Source: Spirochaetia bacterium
GTDB taxonomy: Bacteria > Spirochaetota > Spirochaetia > DSM-2461
Assembly: GCA_963668315.1 (NCBI GenBank)
Contig: OY764216.1
Location: forward strand, 1,696,001-1,760,000
Direction of reading: 5' to 3'
Length of the DNA: 64,000 nt
Position numbers and translations under genes: made by a program. A model generated the notes under the pieces. It had not been told where the DNA came from and did no database searches. It saw nothing but the letters and a program-made list of their open reading frames with translations. This document shows, one piece after another, positions 34,310 to 46,567 of the stretch (positions are counted from its first letter, which is position 1; each line of letters begins with the position of its first letter).

Positions 34310-34918
34310 TTAGCTCTTAATCCTGCCTGCCATCTCGCAGGTCCTCATAAGACGAAGGCCCAGGGCCTCGGACTCTTCAAGAATCGTCTCTTTTTCTAAT
34401 ACCTCACCCGGTTTAAAGGCATGGATTACCTCCTGGCTGAAGACGATGCGGTAACCAAGTGAGGAAAAGGCGGCCCTCATCGCGGCCGAGGTGAAGCCAA
34501 GGTTTTCCCGGTCAGGCTGTTCGCAAAGGGAAATAAGTCCGGCGTAACGGGGACGGCCGCTTTCAAGCTCGCTTACCCAGGCTGATCTATCCTTTTCATG
34601 GTACGACGTGAGGCAGTAGCAGCGGTCAATAAATCTTTTCATATCGGAGGAGACATTGTAGAAATAAGTGGGAGAGCCGGCAATGAGCGCATCCGCCTCG
34701 CGGAGGAGGGCATAGAGCGGCGTCATCCCGTCGCTGATGACGCACCTGTTGGTTTTGGCGCAGCCTTCACAGCCCGTACAGGCCTGGATTTCCCTGTCGC
34801 CCGGATAAATCAGGCTGGTTTCCCAGCCGGCGTCTCTGAAGGGGGTCAGCGCCCTATTAAGCAGGGCCGCTGTATTGCCGTTTTTCCTGCGGCTGCCCGA
34901 CAGGGCGAGGACCTTCAC
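34310..34918 (-). CDS. Flavodoxin-like iron-sulfur flavoprotein
   Basis: SGSRRKNGNT, CTGCEGC...C, GSPTYF. Confidence 0.88.
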   Translation of the reverse strand: MKVLALSGSRRKNGNTAALLNRALTPFRDAGWETSLIYPGDREIQACTGCEGCAKTNRCVISDGMTPLYALLREADALIAGSPTYFYNVSSDMKRFIDRCYCLTSYHEKDRSAWVSELESGRPRYAGLISLCEQPDRENLGFTSAAMRAAFSSLGYRIVFSQEVIHAFKPGEVLEKETILEESEALGLRLMRTCEMAGRIKS

Positions 34919-35436
34919 TGTTTCTCTTCGGAAAAGTAGCTGTCCACCGCCTGTGAACTGGCGGCGATAGGACCGCTGAATAGAACGGGTGGCGCGTCTA
35001 TGTTTTCCGCATTCATCATGGAAGCCAGCCTCTCAAGGGAAGAGAGAATCATATGTTTTTCCCAGTCCTCCAGTTTGATGAATTTTTCTGAGAAGTCTTC
35101 CTGCAGAAGGGATGGACGATTCTCAAGAATATGTAGAGCCTTTTCCGTCAGCTGGAGGTTGACCTTTCTTTTATCCTGAATGCTTCTTTGCCGTTTTGCG
35201 AAGCCCTGCTGTTCAAGGCGGTTGAGTATGGTCGTTACCGTTGCCTGAGACAGACTGACCTCTCGGGATATGATGGAAATAGGGCGGTTGGGGTCTTTCT
35301 GAATCTCCTTCAGGAGAATGAGCTGCGGGCCGGTCAGACCGTAGGTCTTTGTAAGTTTTTTAGATTGAAGATCTATGGCCCTGATGATTCTTCTCAGGGT
35401 TGAGACAACTTCGTCGGCTGTTTCATTTAAATCCAT
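34915..35436 (-). CDS. MarR family regulator, EctR/CosR-like
   Basis: LRRIIRAIDLQSKKL..YGLTGPQL, DKR; divergent from the osmolyte transporter. Confidence 0.88.
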   Translation of the reverse strand: MDLNETADEVVSTLRRIIRAIDLQSKKLTKTYGLTGPQLILLKEIQKDPNRPISIISREVSLSQATVTTILNRLEQQGFAKRQRSIQDKRKVNLQLTEKALHILENRPSLLQEDFSEKFIKLEDWEKHMILSSLERLASMMNAENIDAPPVLFSGPIAASSQAVDSYFSEEKQ

Positions 35437-35663: not shown

Positions 35664-36608
35664 ATGAAGAAGTTACTATTTGCAGCCGTTGCTTTTGCTT
35701 TATGCTTTGGTTTTTCCCTTACCGCTGAGGGACAGCAGGACAGCGGAACGACAACTATCGTCTTTGGGGATGTTTCCTGGGACAGTGTTCAGGTTCACAA
35801 CCGGATTATGGCCTTTATCATTGAGAACGGTCTTGACGGTTATGAGGCTGATTTTATGGCCGGAGATACCCTTCCTATCATCAATGGAGTCATTCAGGGC
35901 GATGTGGATGTTGATATGGAATCCTGGCACTCCAATTTCCGCGATGTCTACGAAAAGGGCATCGCTTCAGGCGATATGGTTGATTTAGGGAAGAATATGC
36001 CCGACGGACCCCAGGGCTGGTGGATTCCCCGCTATGTTGTGGAAGGACCCGATGCGGTGGCTCCCGGTTTGAAGTCCGTTGCCGATCTGCCTGAGTACGC
36101 CGATCTCTTCACCGATCCGGAAGATCCGGGTAAAGGAATTGTCTACGGCGGTGTCGCCGGATGGTCTCAGCTTGAGATCTCCCAGAAAATATTCGATGAT
36201 AACGGACTGGAAGATTCCTATAACCTGGGAGTAGCTGGATCCGGTTCCGCCCTGGCCGGCACCATGGTGGGAGCCTATCAGAAGAAGGAACCCTGGATTG
36301 GGTATTACTGGGCTCCCACGGCCGTTCTGGGAAAACTGGATATGATAAGGCTCGCAGGAAGCGAATATGACCCGGCCGATGTGAATATTCTGGTGAACAA
36401 ATCCATGATGGAGAAAGCTCCCGAAGTGGTTGAGATTCTGAAAAACTATTCCACCACTGTTGATGATAACAACGAGTTTCTCGCCAAAATGGATGAGAAT
36501 GACTGGGATACCGAACAGGCCGCCGAATGGTTCCTTAAAAACAAGGAAGATGCCTGGACCCGCTGGGTTAGCGCCGATGTGGCAGCTAAGGTAAAGGCGG
36601 CCCTCTAG
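35664..36608 (+). CDS. proX: Glycine betaine/proline ABC substrate-binding protein
   Basis: Signal peptide, SWDS, GWWIPRY, YYWAPT. Confidence 0.9.
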   Translation: MKKLLFAAVAFALCFGFSLTAEGQQDSGTTTIVFGDVSWDSVQVHNRIMAFIIENGLDGYEADFMAGDTLPIINGVIQGDVDVDMESWHSNFRDVYEKGIASGDMVDLGKNMPDGPQGWWIPRYVVEGPDAVAPGLKSVADLPEYADLFTDPEDPGKGIVYGGVAGWSQLEISQKIFDDNGLEDSYNLGVAGSGSALAGTMVGAYQKKEPWIGYYWAPTAVLGKLDMIRLAGSEYDPADVNILVNKSMMEKAPEVVEILKNYSTTVDDNNEFLAKMDENDWDTEQAAEWFLKNKEDAWTRWVSADVAAKVKAAL

Positions 36609-36610
36609 GG

Positions 36611-37870
36611 ATGTCTGAGAGGAATATTCAGAATCAGCCTTCTGAAGATCTTCCTGTAAAAGAAGACGTTCCTCAGGTTCAGATAAAGGACCTGTGGAAA
36701 GTCTTCGGCAGAGATCCGAAGCGGGTATTGAAAAATGATCTTCGAACAAAAAGTAAAGAGGAAATTCAAAAAAAGACTGGCTGTATTGTGGGTATGAGGA
36801 ATGTAAACCTCACCATCAGGAAGGGCCAGTTTTATATACTGATGGGGCTCTCGGGAAGCGGGAAGTCCACTTTGATCAGGAATATCATACGGCTGGTTAA
36901 TCCCACCTCGGGATCGATAACTATTAACGGGCAGAATGTTACGAAAATGAGCAGCGACCAGCTGCTTCAGTTCCGCCGGAAAACATTCGGTATGGTTTTT
37001 CAGCATTACGGATTACTGCCCCATCTGACCGTGCTGGATAATGCGGCGTATGGTCTGAAGGTGCGTGATGTCCCTAAAGGGGAGCGTTACGCCCGAGCCA
37101 TGAGCACTCTGGAGACGGTCGGACTGAAAGGCTGGGAGGATTACTACCCGGGATCTCTCTCCGGCGGTATGCAGCAGAGGGTCGGTCTGGCCCGTGCCCT
37201 GGCAAATGACCCGGAAATCCTCCTGATGGATGAACCCTTCAGCGGCCTTGATCCCCTGATCAGAAGGCAGATGCAGGATGAGCTGGTGGAGCTTCAGGAA
37301 AAGCTTCAGAAAACCATTATCTTCGTTACCCATGATCTCCATGAGGCGCTCAAACTGGGTGACCGTATTGCCATCATGCGTAACGGTGAGGTCGTCCAGG
37401 AGGGAACTCCCGAGGAGATCGTCACCCATCCCGCCGATGAATATGTGCAGGAGTTCGTTCAGGACGCATCTCCCGCCAAGGTTTTAACCGCCGGATCCAT
37501 TATGGAACCGGCCAAAATTCTCCTATATGCCTGGGAGGGACCGAAAACGGCATTGACCCTTATGCGGTCCAACAAGCGTAAAGCCGCTTTCGTAGTGAAT
37601 AAGAATCATAAGCTTCTGGGTGTGGCCAAAGAAGAAACACTGGCCAGGCTTCTGGAGACGGAGGCCATCCCCGAAAAAATACCCCAGTCTGCCATCAGAA
37701 CTGTTCCCGTTGTGCAGGAGGATACCATTCTGGAAGATATGTTTTCCATCATCTCCGACAATCCCTACCCGGTTCCCGTAGTGAACGGAGAAGGACGGTT
37801 TATGGGACTTGTGACGACGGACCAGATATTTGAATCCATATCCCCTTCCGAAGGAGATGAACATGCTTGA
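36611..37870 (+). CDS. proV: Glycine betaine ABC ATP-binding protein with CBS domains
   Basis: MGLSGSGKST, LSGGMQQRVGLARAL, DPLIRRQMQDEL. Confidence 0.95.
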   Translation: MSERNIQNQPSEDLPVKEDVPQVQIKDLWKVFGRDPKRVLKNDLRTKSKEEIQKKTGCIVGMRNVNLTIRKGQFYILMGLSGSGKSTLIRNIIRLVNPTSGSITINGQNVTKMSSDQLLQFRRKTFGMVFQHYGLLPHLTVLDNAAYGLKVRDVPKGERYARAMSTLETVGLKGWEDYYPGSLSGGMQQRVGLARALANDPEILLMDEPFSGLDPLIRRQMQDELVELQEKLQKTIIFVTHDLHEALKLGDRIAIMRNGEVVQEGTPEEIVTHPADEYVQEFVQDASPAKVLTAGSIMEPAKILLYAWEGPKTALTLMRSNKRKAAFVVNKNHKLLGVAKEETLARLLETEAIPEKIPQSAIRTVPVVQEDTILEDMFSIISDNPYPVPVVNGEGRFMGLVTTDQIFESISPSEGDEHA

Positions 37871-38705
37871 TTTTCCCGAATTTATAGATATTCCCCTGGC
37901 AAAGGCCATCGATGCCGCCATGGAGTGGCTTCTTACCCATCTTGATGGTTTCTTTGATGCCGTCGGCTTTATCATCCTCCAGGTGGTGAACGGTTTCGAA
38001 TCGATATTTCTATTTGTTCCCTGGTTCATTCTCATTCCCCTGGCGGGACTGGCGGGATGGAAACTGGTGGGCAAATGGAAATCGGGGATCGCTTTTATGG
38101 TTCTGCTCATGCTTATCGGATCCTTCGGATATTGGGAGCTGGCCATGAGAACCCTGGCCCTCGTCATCGCGTCGGTTTTCTTTTCCCTGATCATGGGAAT
38201 CCCCCTGGGAATAAAGATGGCACGGAGCGACCGGGCCCAGGCCGTTCTTCAGCCCATTCTGGACGGAATGCAAACCATGCCCAGCTTCGTGTATCTTATC
38301 CCGGCGCTGATGTTTTTCGGAATGGGAAAGGTCCCGGCCATGTTCGCCACGGTCATCTATGCGGTACCCCCGGTTATCCGGCTTACCAATGTGGGGATCA
38401 GAACCGTCGATGAGGAGGCTGTGGAGGCATCCAAGGCCTTCGGCGCCACGCCCCGTCAGGTTCTGTTCGATGTGCAGCTGCCCCTGGCCAAACCTTCCAT
38501 TATGGTGGGAATAAATCAGACGACGATGATGGCTCTGGCCATGGTCGTCATGGGCTCCATGATCGGTGCGAAAGGACTGGGAATGGAAGTGCTTATCGCC
38601 ATCAGCCGGATCGAAGTGGGACAGGGGTTTGAGGCGGGATTATCCATTGTGTTCCTGGCCATTGTCATTGACAGGATAACCTATTCGTTTTCAGAGAAAA
38701 AATAG
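37863..38705 (+). CDS. proW: Glycine betaine ABC permease
   Basis: MQTMPSFVYLIP, EASKAFGA, GINQTTMMAL. Confidence 0.95.
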   Translation: MLDFPEFIDIPLAKAIDAAMEWLLTHLDGFFDAVGFIILQVVNGFESIFLFVPWFILIPLAGLAGWKLVGKWKSGIAFMVLLMLIGSFGYWELAMRTLALVIASVFFSLIMGIPLGIKMARSDRAQAVLQPILDGMQTMPSFVYLIPALMFFGMGKVPAMFATVIYAVPPVIRLTNVGIRTVDEEAVEASKAFGATPRQVLFDVQLPLAKPSIMVGINQTTMMALAMVVMGSMIGAKGLGMEVLIAISRIEVGQGFEAGLSIVFLAIVIDRITYSFSEKK

Positions 38706-38995: not shown

Positions 38996-40621
38996 TCAGG
39001 GTTCCCTTTCCGAGTTCTTGTTTAATTCCAGGCGGGAATATTCCCTGGCCACATCGGATGAGAAGAGCAGATCGTGCAGCCGGCTGTCCAGTTCGTTGCC
39101 GTCTGCCATCTTCTTGATTATTTCCAGAGCCCGGCTCCATTCAATAGGCTTTCTGTAAGGCCTGTCCCTTGCCGTCAGGGCCTCAAATATGTCCGATACG
39201 GCAATAATCCTTGCCTGAAGGGGAATCTGATCCTCCTTCAGACTGCGGTGATAACCGGAGCCGTCCAGCTTTTCATGATGCATGGAGGCGTACTCCGACA
39301 CCATGGACAGGTTGGCGGGGAAGGGCAGCTTATCCAGTATCTCCTTGGTCATAGCCACGTGGTTCTCTATGATCTTCCTTTCCTCTGCCGTCAGGGTACC
39401 CCGGCGTATGGAAAGCTTCTCCCTTTCCCCTTCCGTAAGGTAAGGGTACGTCTCCCCGTCCAGGATATAGGTCTTCTCCCCGATCTCATTCAGACGGGTC
39501 AGCCTGTCGTCATCCATATATTCGCTGGGCATATTGCAGCTCACCACAAATTCGCGATCGGCCCGTATCTGCCTTTTTTCCTCCTCCGTGGAGGCAATCT
39601 CCTCTATCAGCCGGAATCGGTTATTAATCAGCTCAATACGGTCTTCGAACAGTTCCAGCTTTGTCGCCTTGTTTACCAGATTGTCCGGTGTGGTCAGCTT
39701 TCCTATGTCATGGAGCCAGGCAGAGATGCGTATCTCTTCCATCTCTTCATCGGTAAAACAGACATCTTTAAAAGGACCTTCCTTCGCTTCGTTCACGGCC
39801 TGGGTGATCATCATGGTCAGCGTCACGACTCTTCGTATATGGTCTCCCGTATAGGGGGATTTCTTATCTATGGCCGAGGCTATGCTGCGGATAAAAGCAT
39901 TAAACAGTTCCCTCAGCTGGTCGGTCAGCTGCACATTGTTCAGAATGGACGCCGCATGGGCCGTCAGGAGGGAGATGAGATTCTCATGGTTTCTGGTAAA
40001 GGACACGGGACTTCCCGTCTTTTTGTCCTGGGCGTTGATCAGCTGAATGACGCCGATCATTTTTCCCTCCAGATCCTTCATGGGCATGACGAGCATGGAG
40101 TGGGAACGGTAGCCCGTGCTGCTGTCGTATTTTCTCGTTCCGGAAAAGTTATAGTTCTCTTCCTTGTAGACATCGGGTATGTTGATGGTCTTGCAGCTCA
40201 CGGCGCAGCTGGAGCAGACATTTTCCCAGTTGGGCTGTCCGTCCCGGTAAAGGGGCACGGAAGGCAGTTCGATCGGGTTGCCGCTGGTTCCTCCCTGCCG
40301 AATTCCCCGGGAGTTGGTATGCATGATGGCAAAGTCCAGTTCCTCGTTTTCCCGGTCATAAAGGTAAAGGGTTCCCGCATCGGCCGCCGTCAGGGACTGG
40401 CATTCATCCAGAATCAGTTCGAGAAGTTCATAGACCGATGAACCGCGGGACAGCACTTTTCCTATGAGGGCATAGGTTTCGTAACCCTGGCGGCTCTCTT
40501 CCAGATCCTGCGCCGTTTCTGCCTGAAGCTCACGGAAATTCCTTTTTGCCTTTCTTTCCCTCAGGAAGAAAAAAATGAGAACGATAACGGTTGTACACAG
40601 AAGGGCATTGATAAACATCAT
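38996..40621 (-). CDS. Membrane-anchored GAF + HD-GYP phosphodiesterase (start may be 40678)
   Basis: GAF region, LHDIGK, HHEKLDGSGYH, DRPYR. Confidence 0.9.
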   Translation of the reverse strand: MMFINALLCTTVIVLIFFFLRERKAKRNFRELQAETAQDLEESRQGYETYALIGKVLSRGSSVYELLELILDECQSLTAADAGTLYLYDRENEELDFAIMHTNSRGIRQGGTSGNPIELPSVPLYRDGQPNWENVCSSCAVSCKTINIPDVYKEENYNFSGTRKYDSSTGYRSHSMLVMPMKDLEGKMIGVIQLINAQDKKTGSPVSFTRNHENLISLLTAHAASILNNVQLTDQLRELFNAFIRSIASAIDKKSPYTGDHIRRVVTLTMMITQAVNEAKEGPFKDVCFTDEEMEEIRISAWLHDIGKLTTPDNLVNKATKLELFEDRIELINNRFRLIEEIASTEEEKRQIRADREFVVSCNMPSEYMDDDRLTRLNEIGEKTYILDGETYPYLTEGEREKLSIRRGTLTAEERKIIENHVAMTKEILDKLPFPANLSMVSEYASMHHEKLDGSGYHRSLKEDQIPLQARIIAVSDIFEALTARDRPYRKPIEWSRALEIIKKMADGNELDSRLHDLLFSSDVAREYSRLELNKNSEREP

Positions 40622-40751
40622 TACTGCAATTATAGAAAAAAACTTGCCTTTTTGCCTCCATATTAGTATTTTTTCCATGAAAAATCAAATTAACACCAAG
40701 GGCCTCCCCAAATGACATCTCAGAGGCCCGTGATTAGGAGAATATCGCCCC

Positions 40752-42626
40752 ATGGCCAAACAGAAGTTTAAAACCGAAGTTGATCAATTGCTCAATCTGC
40801 TTATTCACTCCCTCTACTCCCATCCCGAGATATTTCTGCGTGAGCTGATTTCCAACTCTTCCGATGCTCTTGATAAGCTTAAATATCTGACTTTGACCGA
40901 TGAAAAGTTTAAAAATCTGGAGTTCGATCCCCGGATCGATATCGAGATAGACGAAGTGAATCACAAAACCCTGTCCATATCCGACTGCGGTATCGGTATG
41001 AACAAGGACGATCTGGTGGATTCCCTGGGTACCATTGCCCGGTCGGGAACGAAAAACTTCCTTTCAAGCCTTTCGGGCGACGCCAAGAAAGACTCCAACC
41101 TTATCGGACAGTTCGGAGTGGGATTCTACTCCATCTTCATGGTCGCCGACAAGGTTGACGTCATTACCAGAAAAGCCGGTGAGGATCAGGCCTGGAAATG
41201 GTCGAGCGACGGTAAAACCGGATTCTCCATAACCGAAGCGGAAAGGGAGTCCGCCGGTACGACCGTTATCCTCTACCTGAATGATCAGGGACGTGAAATG
41301 GATTCCCAGTGGGAAATCAAAAACATCACGAAAAAATATTCCAACCACATTGCTTTCCCCATTTTCCTCCACTACGAGAAGACCGAATGGGAAGGGGAAG
41401 GGGAGGACCGGACGTCCAAACAGGTTCCCACCACGGAACAGATCAACTCGGCCAGTGCCCTCTGGCGGAGAAACAAATCGGACATTACCGACGAGGAATA
41501 TACGGAGTTCTATAAATCCGTGTCCGATGCCTGGGATGAGCCGATGATGACCGTCCATACCAAGGCAGAGGGTACCATGGAGTACACCACCCTGTTCTTC
41601 GTTCCCAAAACGGCCCCCATGGATATGTTTCAGGCCGATTACAAGCCGGGGGTCAAACTCTATGTGAGAAGGGTTTTCATCACCGACGACGATAAGGAAC
41701 TCATGCCCTCCTATCTGCGGTTCGTCAAGGGTGTCATCGATTCGGAAGATCTTCCCCTGAATGTCAGCCGTGAACTTCTCCAGAAAAACAAGGTCCTGGC
41801 CAACATTAAAACAGCCAGCACCAAGAAGATGCTCGCCGAGTTCAAGAAACTCTCCGAGGACAAAGAGAAATATGCCGAATTCATCGACCAGTACAACCGC
41901 CCCCTTAAGGAAGGTCTCTACTCCGATTTCTCAAATAAGGAAGTTCTCATGGACCTGGTGCGCTTCAAATCCACCACGGAAGAGGGCTGGGTCTCCCTGG
42001 CCGAGTACAAGGAGCGGATGAAGGAAGATCAGAAGGCAATTTACTACATCGCCGGCGAAAAAGAGGAACAGCTGCGCAAGTCTCCCCTCCTGGAAGCCTA
42101 TGCCAAGAAGGGAATTGAAGTACTAATCATGGCCGACGAGATCGATGAGATTGTCATCCCCATGGCAGGTCCCTATCAGGAAACCGAGCTTAAGGCCATT
42201 AATAAATCCAATGCCGCCGACGACCTGAAGGACGAGGAGGACGAGAAGAAGGAAAAAGCCGTAGAGCCCGTGGTCAAGAAGATCAAAAAGGCTCTGGGTG
42301 ATGCGGTGAAAGATGTGAAAGCATCCAGCCGTCTCCATGAATCGCCCTGCTGTATCGTGGCCGATGAGAACGATCCCAGCGCGCAGATGCGTCAGATGAT
42401 GGCCGCCATGGGGCAGGCCGGGAACCTTCCCGAGATTCAGCCGATTCTGGAGATCAATCCGGATCACGAAATGGTAAAAAAACTGGCCGATACAAAGGAC
42501 AAACAGGTCATCGAAGATGTTTCCTGGGTTCTCCTGGGGCAGGCTATGCTCCTGGAAGGTCATGAGCTCAAGGATGCGAGCGATTTCGCCGCGCGTCTGA
42601 ACCGACTGGTTACCGGAACTCTTTAG
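40752..42626 (+). CDS. htpG: Chaperone HtpG (Hsp90)
   Basis: FLRELISNSSDA, IGQFGVGFYS, DLPLNVSRE. Confidence 0.98.
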   Translation: MAKQKFKTEVDQLLNLLIHSLYSHPEIFLRELISNSSDALDKLKYLTLTDEKFKNLEFDPRIDIEIDEVNHKTLSISDCGIGMNKDDLVDSLGTIARSGTKNFLSSLSGDAKKDSNLIGQFGVGFYSIFMVADKVDVITRKAGEDQAWKWSSDGKTGFSITEAERESAGTTVILYLNDQGREMDSQWEIKNITKKYSNHIAFPIFLHYEKTEWEGEGEDRTSKQVPTTEQINSASALWRRNKSDITDEEYTEFYKSVSDAWDEPMMTVHTKAEGTMEYTTLFFVPKTAPMDMFQADYKPGVKLYVRRVFITDDDKELMPSYLRFVKGVIDSEDLPLNVSRELLQKNKVLANIKTASTKKMLAEFKKLSEDKEKYAEFIDQYNRPLKEGLYSDFSNKEVLMDLVRFKSTTEEGWVSLAEYKERMKEDQKAIYYIAGEKEEQLRKSPLLEAYAKKGIEVLIMADEIDEIVIPMAGPYQETELKAINKSNAADDLKDEEDEKKEKAVEPVVKKIKKALGDAVKDVKASSRLHESPCCIVADENDPSAQMRQMMAAMGQAGNLPEIQPILEINPDHEMVKKLADTKDKQVIEDVSWVLLGQAMLLEGHELKDASDFAARLNRLVTGTL

Positions 42627-42676: not shown

Positions 42677-42708
42677 GGACCGCTTTCTCTGGAGGGCGGT
42701 CCTTTTTT
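42677..42708 (+). terminator. Intrinsic terminator of htpG
   Basis: GGACCGC...GCGGTCC followed by TTTTTT. Confidence 0.85.
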
Positions 42709-44863
42709 ATTGCAGCGGGATCCTGCTCTCAAGCTTACTGAGCAGATCCCGGGTATATTCATTCAGGTCGGCAATCTCCTCTTCGGGAATGCGGAATCCC
42801 ACCGCCCCGGGATGACCGCCCCCGTTCTTTATCTGGAAATGCTCAAGAAGATCCCTGAGGTCCAGGGTCTGGAAGCTGTGACTCCGGCGGATCTTGAACT
42901 GTATCAGACCGCTTTCCCTCTGATCGTCGGCATAGGCGATCAGACCGAGAAAGCCGCTCTCCTCGGCCAGGGAATCGGCGAGATAACGGGTGACCGTCAC
43001 AATCGTCTCATGGTCGAATTCACCCGCAATGACTTCCATATCCTCCGGGGGGATCACGACGGAACCGACGGGGGAGGGAGAAGGGCTTTTGTACCGGCTC
43101 ATTGCATGAAGGCAGCTGTCTTCCCGGTTGGAAAGGCTCTGCATCTCACGGAAAATCTCATTCATGGAGGAAAAATTACTCGATCCCGTGTGGGTTTTCC
43201 TTGCAAGCATCTGGTTGAAAACTTTGCTGAAAAGATCGTAAAACCAACGTTCCCTGGGGGTTTTTATGAACTGTCCCATCTTGGTGTCACCCACGATGCC
43301 GGTGAGGACGGAAAGAACAAAATTCCTTGAGAAAACATCGTAGAAGGCATACTTCTTCCTTAGATCTTTCCGGTTATTCAGTTTACACCCGATCATAGCC
43401 ACCAGTTCGCTGGAAGACGCCGATTCATCCACCAGCCGCAGATCCGGATCGCCTATAAAACCGCTGTCCGCTTCGAGATGATGATCTATCTCCACGACGG
43501 GAACTCCGGGATCGGCTATCATCTCCTCATCCCCGGGAAAGGTCTGTCTCATGGAGGACTTGGGCGTATCCATGATAAAAAGTGTAGAAATCCCCTGCGG
43601 CCGGGGTGCGTCATGGTAGAGGATCTCGATAGAGTTATGTCTGGCTATTTTGACCAGATAGAGATATTTTCTATTCAGCGTACGGGGTATCAACAGGTAA
43701 ACTCTTTTCCTGAAATCCCGGATAAGCAGGGCCATGGCGACCTGGGAGGAGATACAGTCTTCATCGGGATTCAAGTGGCCCGCCACCAGGAAGTTATCCC
43801 TCCCGTCTATCAGATCCAGTATCCTGTGGATGATCCGGTTCCGGGCGGCAATGCTCCCAAGGGGATGTTTGGTCTGGCTGGCGACTGAACTCTGCCAGAT
43901 CACCGCACGGCCCCGTCCCGCTTCTTTTGCCAGATAGACCGCCTGATCCGCCCTTTCCCAGAGCAGTTTCCTGTCCTTTCCATGTACGGGATATCCGGCA
44001 ATTCCTACGCTGGCCGACACAGTTTTCAGGTCACCTTCCAGATCATGGAGAAGATCGATTTTTTTCAATTCTTCTATCATCTCTGTACAGAGTTCACAGG
44101 CCTTTTCAGGCTGAGTGTCGGGAAGGATGAAGGTGAACTCATCGCCGCCGTAACGGCATAGAATATCGCTCTTTCTGAACACCCTGTGAAAAATCTCCAC
44201 GGCCTTCAGCAGCACCTTATCGCCCTGATCCTGTCCGTAAAGATTATTCAATGTCCCGAAATGGTCCAGATCCAGCATCACAAGGGACAGGGGCTGCTCT
44301 CTTTCTTCCGCTTCCCTCAGCCGTCCGTCCACAGACTGATCAAGAAAACGTCTGTTGTAGAGACCAGTGAAATCATCGGTTATCGCCCGGGCCCGGGCCT
44401 GATCTCCCCAGGTGACCATATCCGAAAGGAATGCGCCGGTCACCTGCAGACGGCCCGAAGTCGTATTCAGCATGCTCTGCATGATCCCGATACCCGCCCG
44501 GGGACGGCTCTGTATATATCTGTAAAAATCCTCGCCTTTCAGGCGAAGGAGGCGGGAAGCGGATTTGGGAACACAGGTCGCGGAACGGGGGGCATTGTCG
44601 AAGATGGACATCTCACCGAAAAAATGGCCCTCCGTGATCTCCGCCAGTTCCAGAGTTTCTCCGTCCTGGGTCTCTATGGTAATTCCTACCGAGCCGGACA
44701 GGATGATATAAAGGGCATCCCCCGCATCACCCTCATGAAAAACGGGTGTTCCCGCAGGGAAACTCAGGTTCTTCATCATGTCGTAAAGCTCTTTCAGCTC
44801 TTCTGCAGTGAGAGCCTTCAGCATTTCAAAGGAACCCAGGATTTCAATCGGATCGGATGTCAC
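42707..44863 (-). CDS. cNMP-binding + GGDEF + DHH/DHHA1 fusion protein
   Basis: FFGEMS..PRSAT; RYGGDEF; GHLNPDEDC, IDHH, GGGHPGAVG. Confidence 0.9.
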   Translation of the reverse strand: MTSDPIEILGSFEMLKALTAEELKELYDMMKNLSFPAGTPVFHEGDAGDALYIILSGSVGITIETQDGETLELAEITEGHFFGEMSIFDNAPRSATCVPKSASRLLRLKGEDFYRYIQSRPRAGIGIMQSMLNTTSGRLQVTGAFLSDMVTWGDQARARAITDDFTGLYNRRFLDQSVDGRLREAEEREQPLSLVMLDLDHFGTLNNLYGQDQGDKVLLKAVEIFHRVFRKSDILCRYGGDEFTFILPDTQPEKACELCTEMIEELKKIDLLHDLEGDLKTVSASVGIAGYPVHGKDRKLLWERADQAVYLAKEAGRGRAVIWQSSVASQTKHPLGSIAARNRIIHRILDLIDGRDNFLVAGHLNPDEDCISSQVAMALLIRDFRKRVYLLIPRTLNRKYLYLVKIARHNSIEILYHDAPRPQGISTLFIMDTPKSSMRQTFPGDEEMIADPGVPVVEIDHHLEADSGFIGDPDLRLVDESASSSELVAMIGCKLNNRKDLRKKYAFYDVFSRNFVLSVLTGIVGDTKMGQFIKTPRERWFYDLFSKVFNQMLARKTHTGSSNFSSMNEIFREMQSLSNREDSCLHAMSRYKSPSPSPVGSVVIPPEDMEVIAGEFDHETIVTVTRYLADSLAEESGFLGLIAYADDQRESGLIQFKIRRSHSFQTLDLRDLLEHFQIKNGGGHPGAVGFRIPEEEIADLNEYTRDLLSKLESRIPLQ

Positions 44864-45888
44864 GGCTGCTTCTCCTTTTTTCTGTATACGAGTATACGGC
44901 TCCCCCCCCGCTGACGGCCCTCCAGGGGAAGCTCGTGGGTGAGGCGGATCAGTTTCTCCCCATCTGTGGAGATGTCGGGGTAGATTCCTATTCCCACGCT
45001 GGCTGTCATTTGAAAGGGATCGGATCCGATAACCGGAGACAGATCCAGGGAGCTGATGCAGGTCTGAATGGCCTGGGCCGTGGCATAGGCTTCCCTCCGG
45101 TCCCTGCCGTAGAGGATAACCGCCATGGCGTTTCCCTTGTACCGGGCGGTGCGGTTGTCGTCGCCTATCAAATCCCTCAGACCCTTTGCCATGATGCGGA
45201 TAGCCCTGTCCCCTGCCTCGTGACCGTAGCTGTCGTTGAGTTCCTTGAAATTATCCGGCTTGGAGATAAGCAGGGTCAAGGGAGCGCCCGATTTGTGTAT
45301 ATGATCGCGCAGGGTTTCTGTCAGGTAATTCTGATTGTATATGCCGGTCAGTTTATCGCGGTAGACCTGTTTCTTGAGTTCCTGTACCAGAGGGGAATTC
45401 TCTTTCACCAGGTCATTCGCCCGGCGGATACGGTCGGAAACCAAGACAAGAAGCCTATGGAGAATCTGAGCCGCGATCAGGGAGCGGGACTCGAAAAAAT
45501 CCTGAATATCCATGCCCTTTTTGGGAAAGCGCAGCACTTCCGTCTCTTTGCTGGCCAGGGCATCGGCTTTTCGCTGTTCTCCGCAGAACAGGTCCAGTTC
45601 GCCGAAGCTGCTTCCCGGAATGTATCGGGCCAGATGGATCTCGGGACCTTCGGAATATTCCTCTGCTTTCCGAACGACCAACTCGCCGGATTCAACGATA
45701 AACAAGGCGTCCCCCGGATCGCCCTCCGAAAAGAGCAGATCACCCGAATTGAGTTCTATGTATTCGCAGAAGGGAATCAGTTCTCTCAGTTCCCCGGGTT
45801 TAAGCTCGCTGAATATGTTAATCTGCCTGAGTAGATTGGCCGTGTCTGAAGGATCTTTCTGTTTCATGGATGTAATCAATATATCCAT
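44860..45888 (-). CDS. cNMP-binding + degenerate GGDEF protein
   Basis: SFGELD..RKADA; DKLTG, FKELNDSYGH, RYKGNAM in place of GGDEF; stop overlaps the next start. Confidence 0.88.
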   Translation of the reverse strand: MDILITSMKQKDPSDTANLLRQINIFSELKPGELRELIPFCEYIELNSGDLLFSEGDPGDALFIVESGELVVRKAEEYSEGPEIHLARYIPGSSFGELDLFCGEQRKADALASKETEVLRFPKKGMDIQDFFESRSLIAAQILHRLLVLVSDRIRRANDLVKENSPLVQELKKQVYRDKLTGIYNQNYLTETLRDHIHKSGAPLTLLISKPDNFKELNDSYGHEAGDRAIRIMAKGLRDLIGDDNRTARYKGNAMAVILYGRDRREAYATAQAIQTCISSLDLSPVIGSDPFQMTASVGIGIYPDISTDGEKLIRLTHELPLEGRQRGGSRILVYRKKEKQP

Positions 45889-46045: not shown

Positions 46046-46567
46046 ATGGATTTGGATAAAGTTATACGCAAGGTGCCCGATTTTCCCGCCAAGGGCATTC
46101 TTTTCTACGATATCACCAGTGTCATCGGTAATCCAGGGGCTTTCAGTTACTGCATAGACAAAATGGTGGAGCTGTACAGCAATAAGAAGATCGATGCGGT
46201 TGCCGGTGTGGAATCGCGGGGATTTATTTTCGCCGCTCCCTTTGCCGAACGGATGGGAATACCCCTTATCCTTATCCGCAAGGCGGGAAAGCTTCCCGGT
46301 ACGACTCTGAAAGCCGCCTATTCTCTGGAGTACGGCAAGGCGGAGATCGAAGTGCATCAGGCCGATGTGCCCCAGGGAGGCAATGTCCTTCTGATCGATG
46401 ACCTTCTGGCCACGGGAGGAACTCTCGAGGCGGCGGCCCGTATTCTCAGAGACGGCGGCGCCCGGGTCGAGAATATCTTCGGTGTGATCGGCCTGCCCTT
46501 TTTGGGATTCAAGGAAAAACTCGAAGGTATCGATGTGACGACTCTCATCGATTACGACAGCGAGTAA
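46046..46567 (+). CDS. apt: Adenine phosphoribosyltransferase
   Basis: PDFP..GILFYDIT, ESRGF, RKAGKLP, IDDLLATGGT. Confidence 0.97.
   Translation: MDLDKVIRKVPDFPAKGILFYDITSVIGNPGAFSYCIDKMVELYSNKKIDAVAGVESRGFIFAAPFAERMGIPLILIRKAGKLPGTTLKAAYSLEYGKAEIEVHQADVPQGGNVLLIDDLLATGGTLEAAARILRDGGARVENIFGVIGLPFLGFKEKLEGIDVTTLIDYDSE

Follow-up and report, generated by a model that had tools for sequence, protein, structure and literature searches.

A candidate split GGDEF enzyme with complementary catalytic residues in Spirochaetota

The gene pair at the locus

We analysed a window of 64,000 nucleotides from a Spirochaetia bacterium (contig OY764216.1, positions 1,696,001 to 1,760,000) and focused on two adjoining genes, A and B, that each encode a cyclic nucleoside monophosphate (cNMP)-binding domain followed by a GGDEF domain. 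A preliminary description had reported two such genes with an overlapping stop and start; the open reading frames (ORFs) placed both as expected on the minus strand, and the coordinates, the overlap and the Pfam domains agree with that description. Gene B lies directly upstream of gene A, the stop of B and the start of A share a 4-nt overlap (GTGA), and a ribosome-binding site (AAGGAG) stands 8 nt before the start of A; the two genes are likely translationally coupled through these elements. Pfam assigned cNMP_binding and GGDEF to both products (B, P0002; A, P0001), and DHH and DHHA1 only to A. All the motifs quoted earlier for A and B are present in the sequence, and A also carries RKSD (I-site) and AKEAGR. 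The features are listed below in window positions, with their basis in brackets.

44860-45888, minus strand: gene B, 342 aa, cNMP-binding domain and GGDEF domain with a dead metal site; predicted nucleophile-holding subunit (ORF, Pfam, family counts)
42707-44863, minus strand: gene A, 718 aa, GTG start, cNMP-binding, GGDEF, DHH and DHHA1 domains; predicted metal-bearing, electrophile-holding subunit with a fused phosphodiesterase-type domain (ORF, Pfam)
44860-44877, minus strand: GTGA overlap and AAGGAG ribosome-binding site (sequence)
45514-45756, minus strand: cNMP-binding domain of B, aa 45-125, GE and Arg106 present (Pfam; Arg kept in 91/120)
45208-45261, minus strand: B motif KPDNFKELNDSYGHEAGD, aa 210-227, metal Asp replaced by Lys-Pro; K215, N218, D219, H223 and D227 kept (sequence, family counts)
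45124-45138, minus strand: degenerate signature KGNAM of B, aa 251-255 (sequence, family counts)
44507-44764, minus strand: cNMP-binding domain of A, aa 34-119, GE...RSA cassette (Pfam, conservation)
44219-44272, minus strand: A motif DLDHFGTLNNLYGQDQGD, aa 198-215; metal Asp, N206 and D215 kept, K/D/H at 203/207/211 replaced (sequence, family counts)
44135-44149, minus strand: intact GGDEF of A, aa 239-243, preceded by an RxxD I-site (sequence, family counts)
42737-43792, minus strand: hydrolase part of A, from DHH (aa 358-505) to DHHA1 (aa 617-709) (Pfam, fold match, conserved motifs)
42677-42702, unstranded: 11-bp hairpin between A and the convergent htpG gene, terminator-like by consensus match only (sequence)

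Complementary residues and conservation of the pair

Residues were numbered by alignment to DgcR (6zxb), with an offset of +5 that reproduces all residue numbers of PMC8041772. In the competent-dimer model of DgcR, as given in excerpts of that paper, N182 and D191 bind the subunit's own guanine, K289 and R293 its own gamma-phosphate, and D174, E217 and E218 the metals, while K179 and metal M2 work on the other subunit's substrate; D183-Y286' and D282-H187' link the two subunits, and the other subunit's guanine may be read by R147 (PMC8041772). An alternative view, found in an excerpt of PMC6456294, proposes the fourth-position Glu as a cross-dimer base. We counted these positions over 101 A and 119 B domains classed by hidden Markov model score (one ordinary cyclase neighbour was excluded), with the 55 intact GG[DE]EF domains of the window's own genome as controls. 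Counts in another 75 control domains (K/D/H in 75/75) were left unused as circular, these domains having been pulled partly by the FKxxNDxxGH pattern; the K210/P211/K215 counts in the B alignment and the Lys-Pro count in library representatives were likewise circular and were replaced by those over the 119 B domains.

D174: A 101; B 0 (Lys 119, then Pro 119); controls 55
K179: A 3; B 119; controls 55
D183: A 10; B 119; controls 55
H187: A 40; B 119; controls 55
D282: A 100; B 0; controls 53
Y286: A 99; B 7; controls 52
K289: A 100; B 1 (Arg 107); controls 53
R293, as R or K: A 100; B 2; controls 50
R147: A 101; B 55; controls 51
N182: A 93; B 118; controls 55
D191: A 80 (Asn 21); B 119; controls 55

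The A proteins keep the canonical metal site (D198 in 101/101, D241 and E242 in 101/101), together with N206 (93/101), D215 (80/101), K313 (100/101) and an R or K at 317 (100/101). B has no canonical metal site: Lys stands at the metal Asp in 119/119 and the first Gly of GGDEF is kept in 6/119. Among the best 150 matches in a library of 50%-identity representatives, 121 domains were of the Lys-Pro type, and these keep K in 121, D in 120, H in 121 and D in 121. A second complementary set joins D306 and Y310 of A to H223 and D219 of B. The reciprocal substitutions, which had first been read from one pair of genes, are thus conserved phylum-wide and are not due to chance; a sequencing artefact or recent decay was rejected on the same conservation.

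Two details of the earlier reading had to be changed. The replacements of Lys, Asp and His in A are real, but the lost Asp (207, DgcR D183) is a cross-subunit contact and not the base reader, N206 and D215 being kept. At the C-terminal end of the B domain the Arg is lost (G329), as reported, while the Lys has only changed to Arg (R325), which is conservative. The asymmetry between one donor and one acceptor site held up: under the DgcR residue roles exactly one working half-site is left in A:B. The invariant R171 of A would read the guanine bound in B, the A:B dimer would retain one of each symmetric contact pair, all serving the same bond, and only one of the two symmetric half-sites is predicted to work. 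Since the fourth Glu is invariant in A, this bond is supported under either view of the residue roles. We consider it likely, from these residue patterns, that A and B form an obligate heterodimer with a single metal centre.

It is improbable that B instead binds A as a regulator without catalysis or as a sensor of guanine nucleotides, with A active as a homodimer or the pair without synthase activity. Degenerate GGDEF receptors are common, solo B paralogues exist (see below), and the three replaced positions of A are conservative ([KR][DE]H) in 41/120 proteins. Nevertheless, the full K+D+H set was found in 0/120 A proteins and position 203 is Gly in 39/120, and what B retains are exactly the residues with a role across the dimer, at the substrate of its partner, which would be needless for a pure inhibitor.

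We then recorded the distribution of the pair in one even draw of 401 genomes of Spirochaetota, the phylum of the window. At the similarity thresholds used (E<=1e-45 for B, E<=1e-55 for the cNMP-GGDEF part of A and E<=1e-40 for the DHH part), B matched in 91 genomes, the cNMP-GGDEF part of A in 102 and the DHH part in 93, and A and B were both present in 90. Eleven of the 12 genomes with A only, all of which were fetched, have a divergent Lys-Pro-type B directly upstream, while no B was recovered by profile search in the twelfth (G397; 87% complete, 440 contigs). The single genome with B only has A adjoining (L048), and the B profile search added one genome (G356). In the final tally 104/401 genomes, about a quarter of the sample, hold A or B, and 103/104 hold both; these co-occurrence counts are descriptive, as related genomes are not independent.

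The loci fetched comprised 100 of 136 non-self B places and 20 loci from close relatives, and 119 of them contain B: 88 have B followed by A, 13 have a B-A fusion and 18 have B alone. In two of the 18, A lies on a different small contig, and all these genomes hold A elsewhere. A check that did not rely on likeness to the query gave a comparable arrangement: searching metagenomes with a DNA pattern of the B motif only yielded 120 loci, of which 80 had flanks (50 B then A, 6 fusions, 4 with the cNMP gene cut by the contig end, 4 solo, 15 truncated and 1 unreadable), so that A was next or fused in 56/64 informative loci, with the 4 cut loci in addition. The A and B trees are congruent, 52/58 and 56/69 supported splits being common to both. 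The homologues that carry names come from spirochaetes (Oceanispirochaeta crateris, Marispirochaeta aestuarii, Spirochaetales and Spirochaetia bins), and the Atlas clusters are mostly Spirochaetota, with one Chloroflexota-dominated look-alike. A GTDB-wide locus scan (1/64 parts scanned) was dominated by ordinary GGDEF genes, with 1 B-type among 80 kept, and no relative of the pair was found in viral contigs.

An AlphaFold2 model of a natural B-A fusion, from a 19-row alignment, reached a predicted local distance difference test score (pLDDT) of 82 with a predicted template modelling score of 0.47 and is uninformative on domain packing. The linker in the modelled fusion has about 10 residues, which is probably too short for an intramolecular parallel dimer, and the fusions would therefore pair between chains.

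Both cNMP-binding domains contain the CRP-type phosphate-binding cassette GE...R, with G83 in 117, E84 in 111 and R93 in 105 of 120 A proteins, and G96 in 118, E97 in 114 and R106 in 91 of 120 B proteins. The phosphate-binding Arg is present in both subunits in 76 pairs, only in A in 29, only in B in 15 and in neither in 0, its losses in A amounting to about two events. Residues of the CRP C-helix have roles in ligand contact; T142 and G143 of A align to CRP positions 127 and 128, and 93/120 B proteins have Asn at the C-helix position that contacts the partner's ligand. XC_0249 uses Asn/Glu C-helix contacts for cyclic GMP (cGMP), according to the part of PMC3770947 used here. Cyclic AMP (cAMP) is our better guess for the activating ligand. 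The genome of the window has four class III cyclase domains. The C-helix Arg and the wide-turn Asp are spaced 25 residues apart in 120/120 A and 120/120 B proteins, an equality that a parallel coiled coil requires.

A second paralogous pair type was also observed, in which A is without the cNMP-binding Arg, B keeps it in 15/15 and A is often D215N (loci L038, L055, L073, L076, L089, L096-L100, L103, L105, L107, L119 and L242); by its residues it is a candidate for a different input and substrate. A solo-B paralogue clade (L066, L067, L075, L082, L084, L086, L087, L091, L092, L214 and L221) has as neighbours a gene for a DUF5698/DUF2179 membrane protein and one that is peptidase-like, and some of its members read RYGGDEF while keeping Lys-Pro; these proteins may be alternative partners for a shared A. 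One B-type protein (P0305) has an extra N-terminal segment of about 170 aa that by eye is GNAT acetyltransferase-like.

The predicted product and the hydrolase

The mechanism that we put forward, built on the DgcR model, is as follows. B would hold a guanine nucleotide without metal, its base being read by N218 and D227 of B and R171 of A. The metals of A would activate the 3'-OH of this nucleotide to attack the alpha-phosphate in the nucleoside triphosphate bound in A, and K215 of B would steady that alpha-phosphate during the attack. For the reverse bond, neither metals in B nor the lysine in A would be available. The equal-length coiled coils would pair A with B, and a cNMP, by our guess cAMP, would switch the heterodimer on. 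In the weakest step, the linear product would leave as the output (pppGpG, pGpG in case GMP is what B takes, or pppGpA in those lineages whose A pocket is relaxed), and the linked DHH/DHHA1 or a paralogue would remove it. The reading as a whole, a cNMP-gated obligate heterodimer that forms one 3'-5' bond and releases a linear product such as pppGpG, is tentative. We hold with the same reserve, if a shade more readily, the broader proposal that the split enzyme turns a cAMP or cGMP signal into a new messenger parallel to cyclic di-GMP (c-di-GMP), either a linear dinucleotide (pppGpG, pGpG, pppGpA) or a Cas10-like oligoguanylate, with its own phosphodiesterase family.

The preliminary description took a single bond to mean a linear end product; this step is not established, since cGAS, DncV and Cas10 cyclise from one site. 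The same heterodimer might thus have c-di-GMP as its end product, a plausible but somewhat less likely outcome in which it would act as a heterodimeric diguanylate cyclase gated by cNMP, while pGpG or leaked intermediate would be cleared by the DHH domain. Two routes can be drawn: pppGpG could be repositioned, with its 5'-triphosphate end in A and its 3' G in B, for the same centre to close it; or, in the lineages with R, E and H at the replaced positions, the ring could be closed by a second half-site that is basic and metal-free. Excerpts of the literature describe pppGpG as the normal diguanylate cyclase intermediate (PMC6005682), DncV and cGAS as rotating their linear intermediate in one site before cyclisation (PMC6456294), and Cas10 as ligating repeatedly at a single site and then cyclising (PMC11734703). 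Guanine readers in both pockets of most members are consistent with this outcome, as is the agreement between a basic residue at A203 and Arg at B251 in 110/120 pairs, which rests on only 6 and 9 tree changes. Against it, rebinding of pppGpG would have to compete with millimolar GTP, a relaxed A pocket would yield dead-end mixed products, and the window lineage, with Gly at A203 and Ala at B254, has no second half-site.

We lean slightly towards release for four reasons. The Lys-Pro of B is invariant and looks selected rather than decayed; A reads its base less strictly (D215N in 22/120 by about 9 changes, where 55/55 controls have Asp), while the guanine-reading Asp of B is strict (119/119); the pair persists in genomes that also have ordinary cyclases; and a hydrolase of dinucleotide type recurs as a fused domain or as a neighbour. 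On the third point, three complete genomes carry only A, B and one further GGDEF, the two third domains that were inspected are ordinary cyclases, and a search for a genome with the pair as its sole GGDEF found none. A mixed cyclic dinucleotide is unlikely, and cyclic GMP-AMP (cGAMP) was rejected as a product, the B pocket being strictly of guanine type.

As for the hydrolase, the catalytic residues H362, D367, D369, D432, D460-H461-H462 and GGGH are invariant among 66 sequences, and D526 is present in at least 90% of them. The DHH/DHHA1 part was modelled as a two-domain fold (pLDDT 88) whose best fold matches are DhhP, TM1595, GdpP and NrnA, with E of about 1e-15. Its scores are far under the NCBIfam cut-offs (17-32 bits vs 350 for the NrnA model, 34 bits vs 707 for PRK14538), and we would place it in an unclassified family with phosphodiesterase-type fold and motifs. 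At the threshold used it is present in 83/104 pair genomes; among the 88 loci with B then A, it is fused in 14, encoded by the next gene in 23 and not in the locus in 51. At one locus (L366, G034) a frame change inside the DHH domain splits an A-DHH fusion, a candidate assembly error or pseudogene.

Several observations weigh against release of a linear product by an obligate heterodimer. Co-occurrence and gene-tree congruence reflect co-inheritance among kin and not binding, and a solo B paralogue occurs at 16 loci in the sampled genomes. The losses in A are graded, with R at 203 in 70/120 and E at 207 in 64/120. The fourth-position Glu, the cross-dimer base proposed in the excerpt of PMC6456294, is present in 111/120 B proteins, so the second half-site may be alive in some lineages. 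This Glu was lost in one event, in the window's clade, while most of the family reads RG[D/N]E; by its residues the window pair appears as a more fully one-sided grade. The RxxD I-site of A is often kept (R in 72/120, D in 97/120), as in c-di-GMP makers, each of the five small genomes checked has PilZ domains, and parsimony points with both to c-di-GMP. By analogy with the single-site enzymes cGAS, DncV and Cas10, repositioning and cyclisation would here give c-di-GMP. The DHH orthologue is missing from 21/104 pair genomes at threshold, some of them complete or near-complete; five were searched again by DHH profile, and G001 (same genus), G349, G362 and G210 had no DHH and one had a divergent copy. 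Conversely, 10 genomes of the draw have DHH without the pair (nine searched again by B profile), and so has G020. The DHH domain is thus a frequent companion of the pair and neither a required nor a dedicated part of it. Stand-alone members in genomes without the pair (L334 in G141, L337 in G294, L338 in G119 and L016 in G020) are candidate pGpG or nano-RNA hydrolases; one such genome has 1.1 Mb and a single GGDEF-like match.

The pair is real and conserved and, as a split GGDEF enzyme, apparently undescribed; sequence supports the predicted one-centre heterodimer well. We found no description of a heterodimeric GGDEF protein or diguanylate cyclase, or of this pair, in open PMC and bioRxiv full text, though subscription papers and supplements could mention one. 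GGDEF enzymes are treated as symmetric homodimers, and annotation takes B-like proteins for dead receptors or for ordinary cyclases. Among described GGDEF enzymes known to us, a natural pair with its catalytic residues divided along the cis/trans line would be the first heterodimer. With it, the contested roles of residues (K179 and metal M2, or else the fourth Glu as base) could be put to a direct test. Should the product be linear, the pair would synthesise a molecule that has so far been known as an intermediate of a reaction or a product of breakdown, and would be a new messenger system.

Around the pair, the htpG gene (40752-42626, plus strand) is convergent downstream and an apt-like phosphoribosyltransferase gene (46046-46567, plus strand) is divergent upstream; both are absent from the most frequent neighbour clusters. 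A GAF and HD-GYP-like protein of 560 aa, whose GYP reads GYH, is encoded 2 kb downstream (38996-40678, minus strand), and GAF-HD genes adjoin the pair also in L050, L089, L099, L100 and L341/L346. Judged from translations, a ProXVW-like glycine betaine ATP-binding cassette transporter (35664-38705, plus strand) and a divergent MarR-type regulator (34915-35436, minus strand) lie further away. Rfam gave no match within window positions 34-54 kb, and a promoter scan at the locus gave matches only at chance level.

Comparison with known systems

Duplicated catalytic domains with complementary losses and one active site are known from the C1/C2 domains of mammalian adenylyl cyclase and the alpha/beta subunits of soluble guanylyl cyclase. 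Those class III cyclases need one reaction per product, whereas a cyclic dinucleotide needs two. On the hydrolase side, GdpP has a GGDEF-DHH fusion architecture, and the DHH and DHHA1 fold and catalytic motifs are common to A, GdpP and the stand-alone phosphodiesterases DhhP, TM1595 and NrnA. In contrast, all four are matched about equally at identities of 14-19%, the scores lie far below the NrnA/GdpP-type cut-offs, and the GGDEF fused here keeps its metal site.

The comparisons that follow draw on excerpts of the cited papers. Homodimeric diguanylate cyclases (DgcR of Leptospira biflexa, PleD, WspR) share with the pair the GGDEF fold, the TGLYNR wide turn and the coiled-coil linker (PMC8041772), and one complete set of their catalytic residues is present in A and B combined; unlike them, the pair has two different subunits, neither complete, and one metal site per dimer. 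XC_0249 of Xanthomonas campestris, a cGMP-stimulated diguanylate cyclase, likewise has a cNMP-binding domain directly before GGDEF and ligand contacts from the opposing C-helix, but it is a single gene reported to be active in c-di-GMP synthesis, with Asn/Glu contacts for cGMP (PMC3770947), whereas here there are two complementary genes with a CRP-like Thr in A and Asn in B. The Hypr GGDEF enzyme GacA is also a GGDEF variant, with a product range changed through base-reading and cross-dimer residues, but it is a homodimer with an Asp-to-Ser change (PMC6456294). This Ser was not found at the guanine-reading Asp of our set (A: Asp 80, Asn 21; B: Asp 119/119), and cGAMP is not predicted.

The closest mechanistic parallel is the cyclic oligoadenylate synthase of Cas10, in which Palm1 holds the triphosphate of the nucleophile ATP mainly by lysines and Palm2 (GGDD) binds two Mg (PMC11734703), a division of labour like that predicted for B and A. 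A Cas10-like iterative synthase, in which the new 5'-triphosphate end would move into A and a fresh GTP would enter B to give linear or cyclic oligo-G of three or more units, is nevertheless very unlikely. We identified neither a chain channel nor additional base pockets, closing at the dimer would be favoured by the two-fold GGDEF geometry, and no conserved effector gene stands beside the pair among the most frequent neighbour clusters over 208 loci, judged from representatives. Nor was a Cas10 architecture or type III CRISPR context found, Pfam giving cNMP-GGDEF only and those neighbour clusters containing no such family. The likeness, by analogy in the residue pattern, would be that of a pseudosymmetric palm pair, one palm with the metals and the other holding the nucleophile nucleotide through basic residues; Cas10 differs in being one chain within a CRISPR complex, adenine-specific and RNA-gated (PMC11734703), where the spirochaetal pair has two GGDEF proteins, a guanine pocket and predicted cNMP gating. 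The pair would show the step that lies between diguanylate cyclases on one side and palm synthases with a single site, such as Cas10, on the other.

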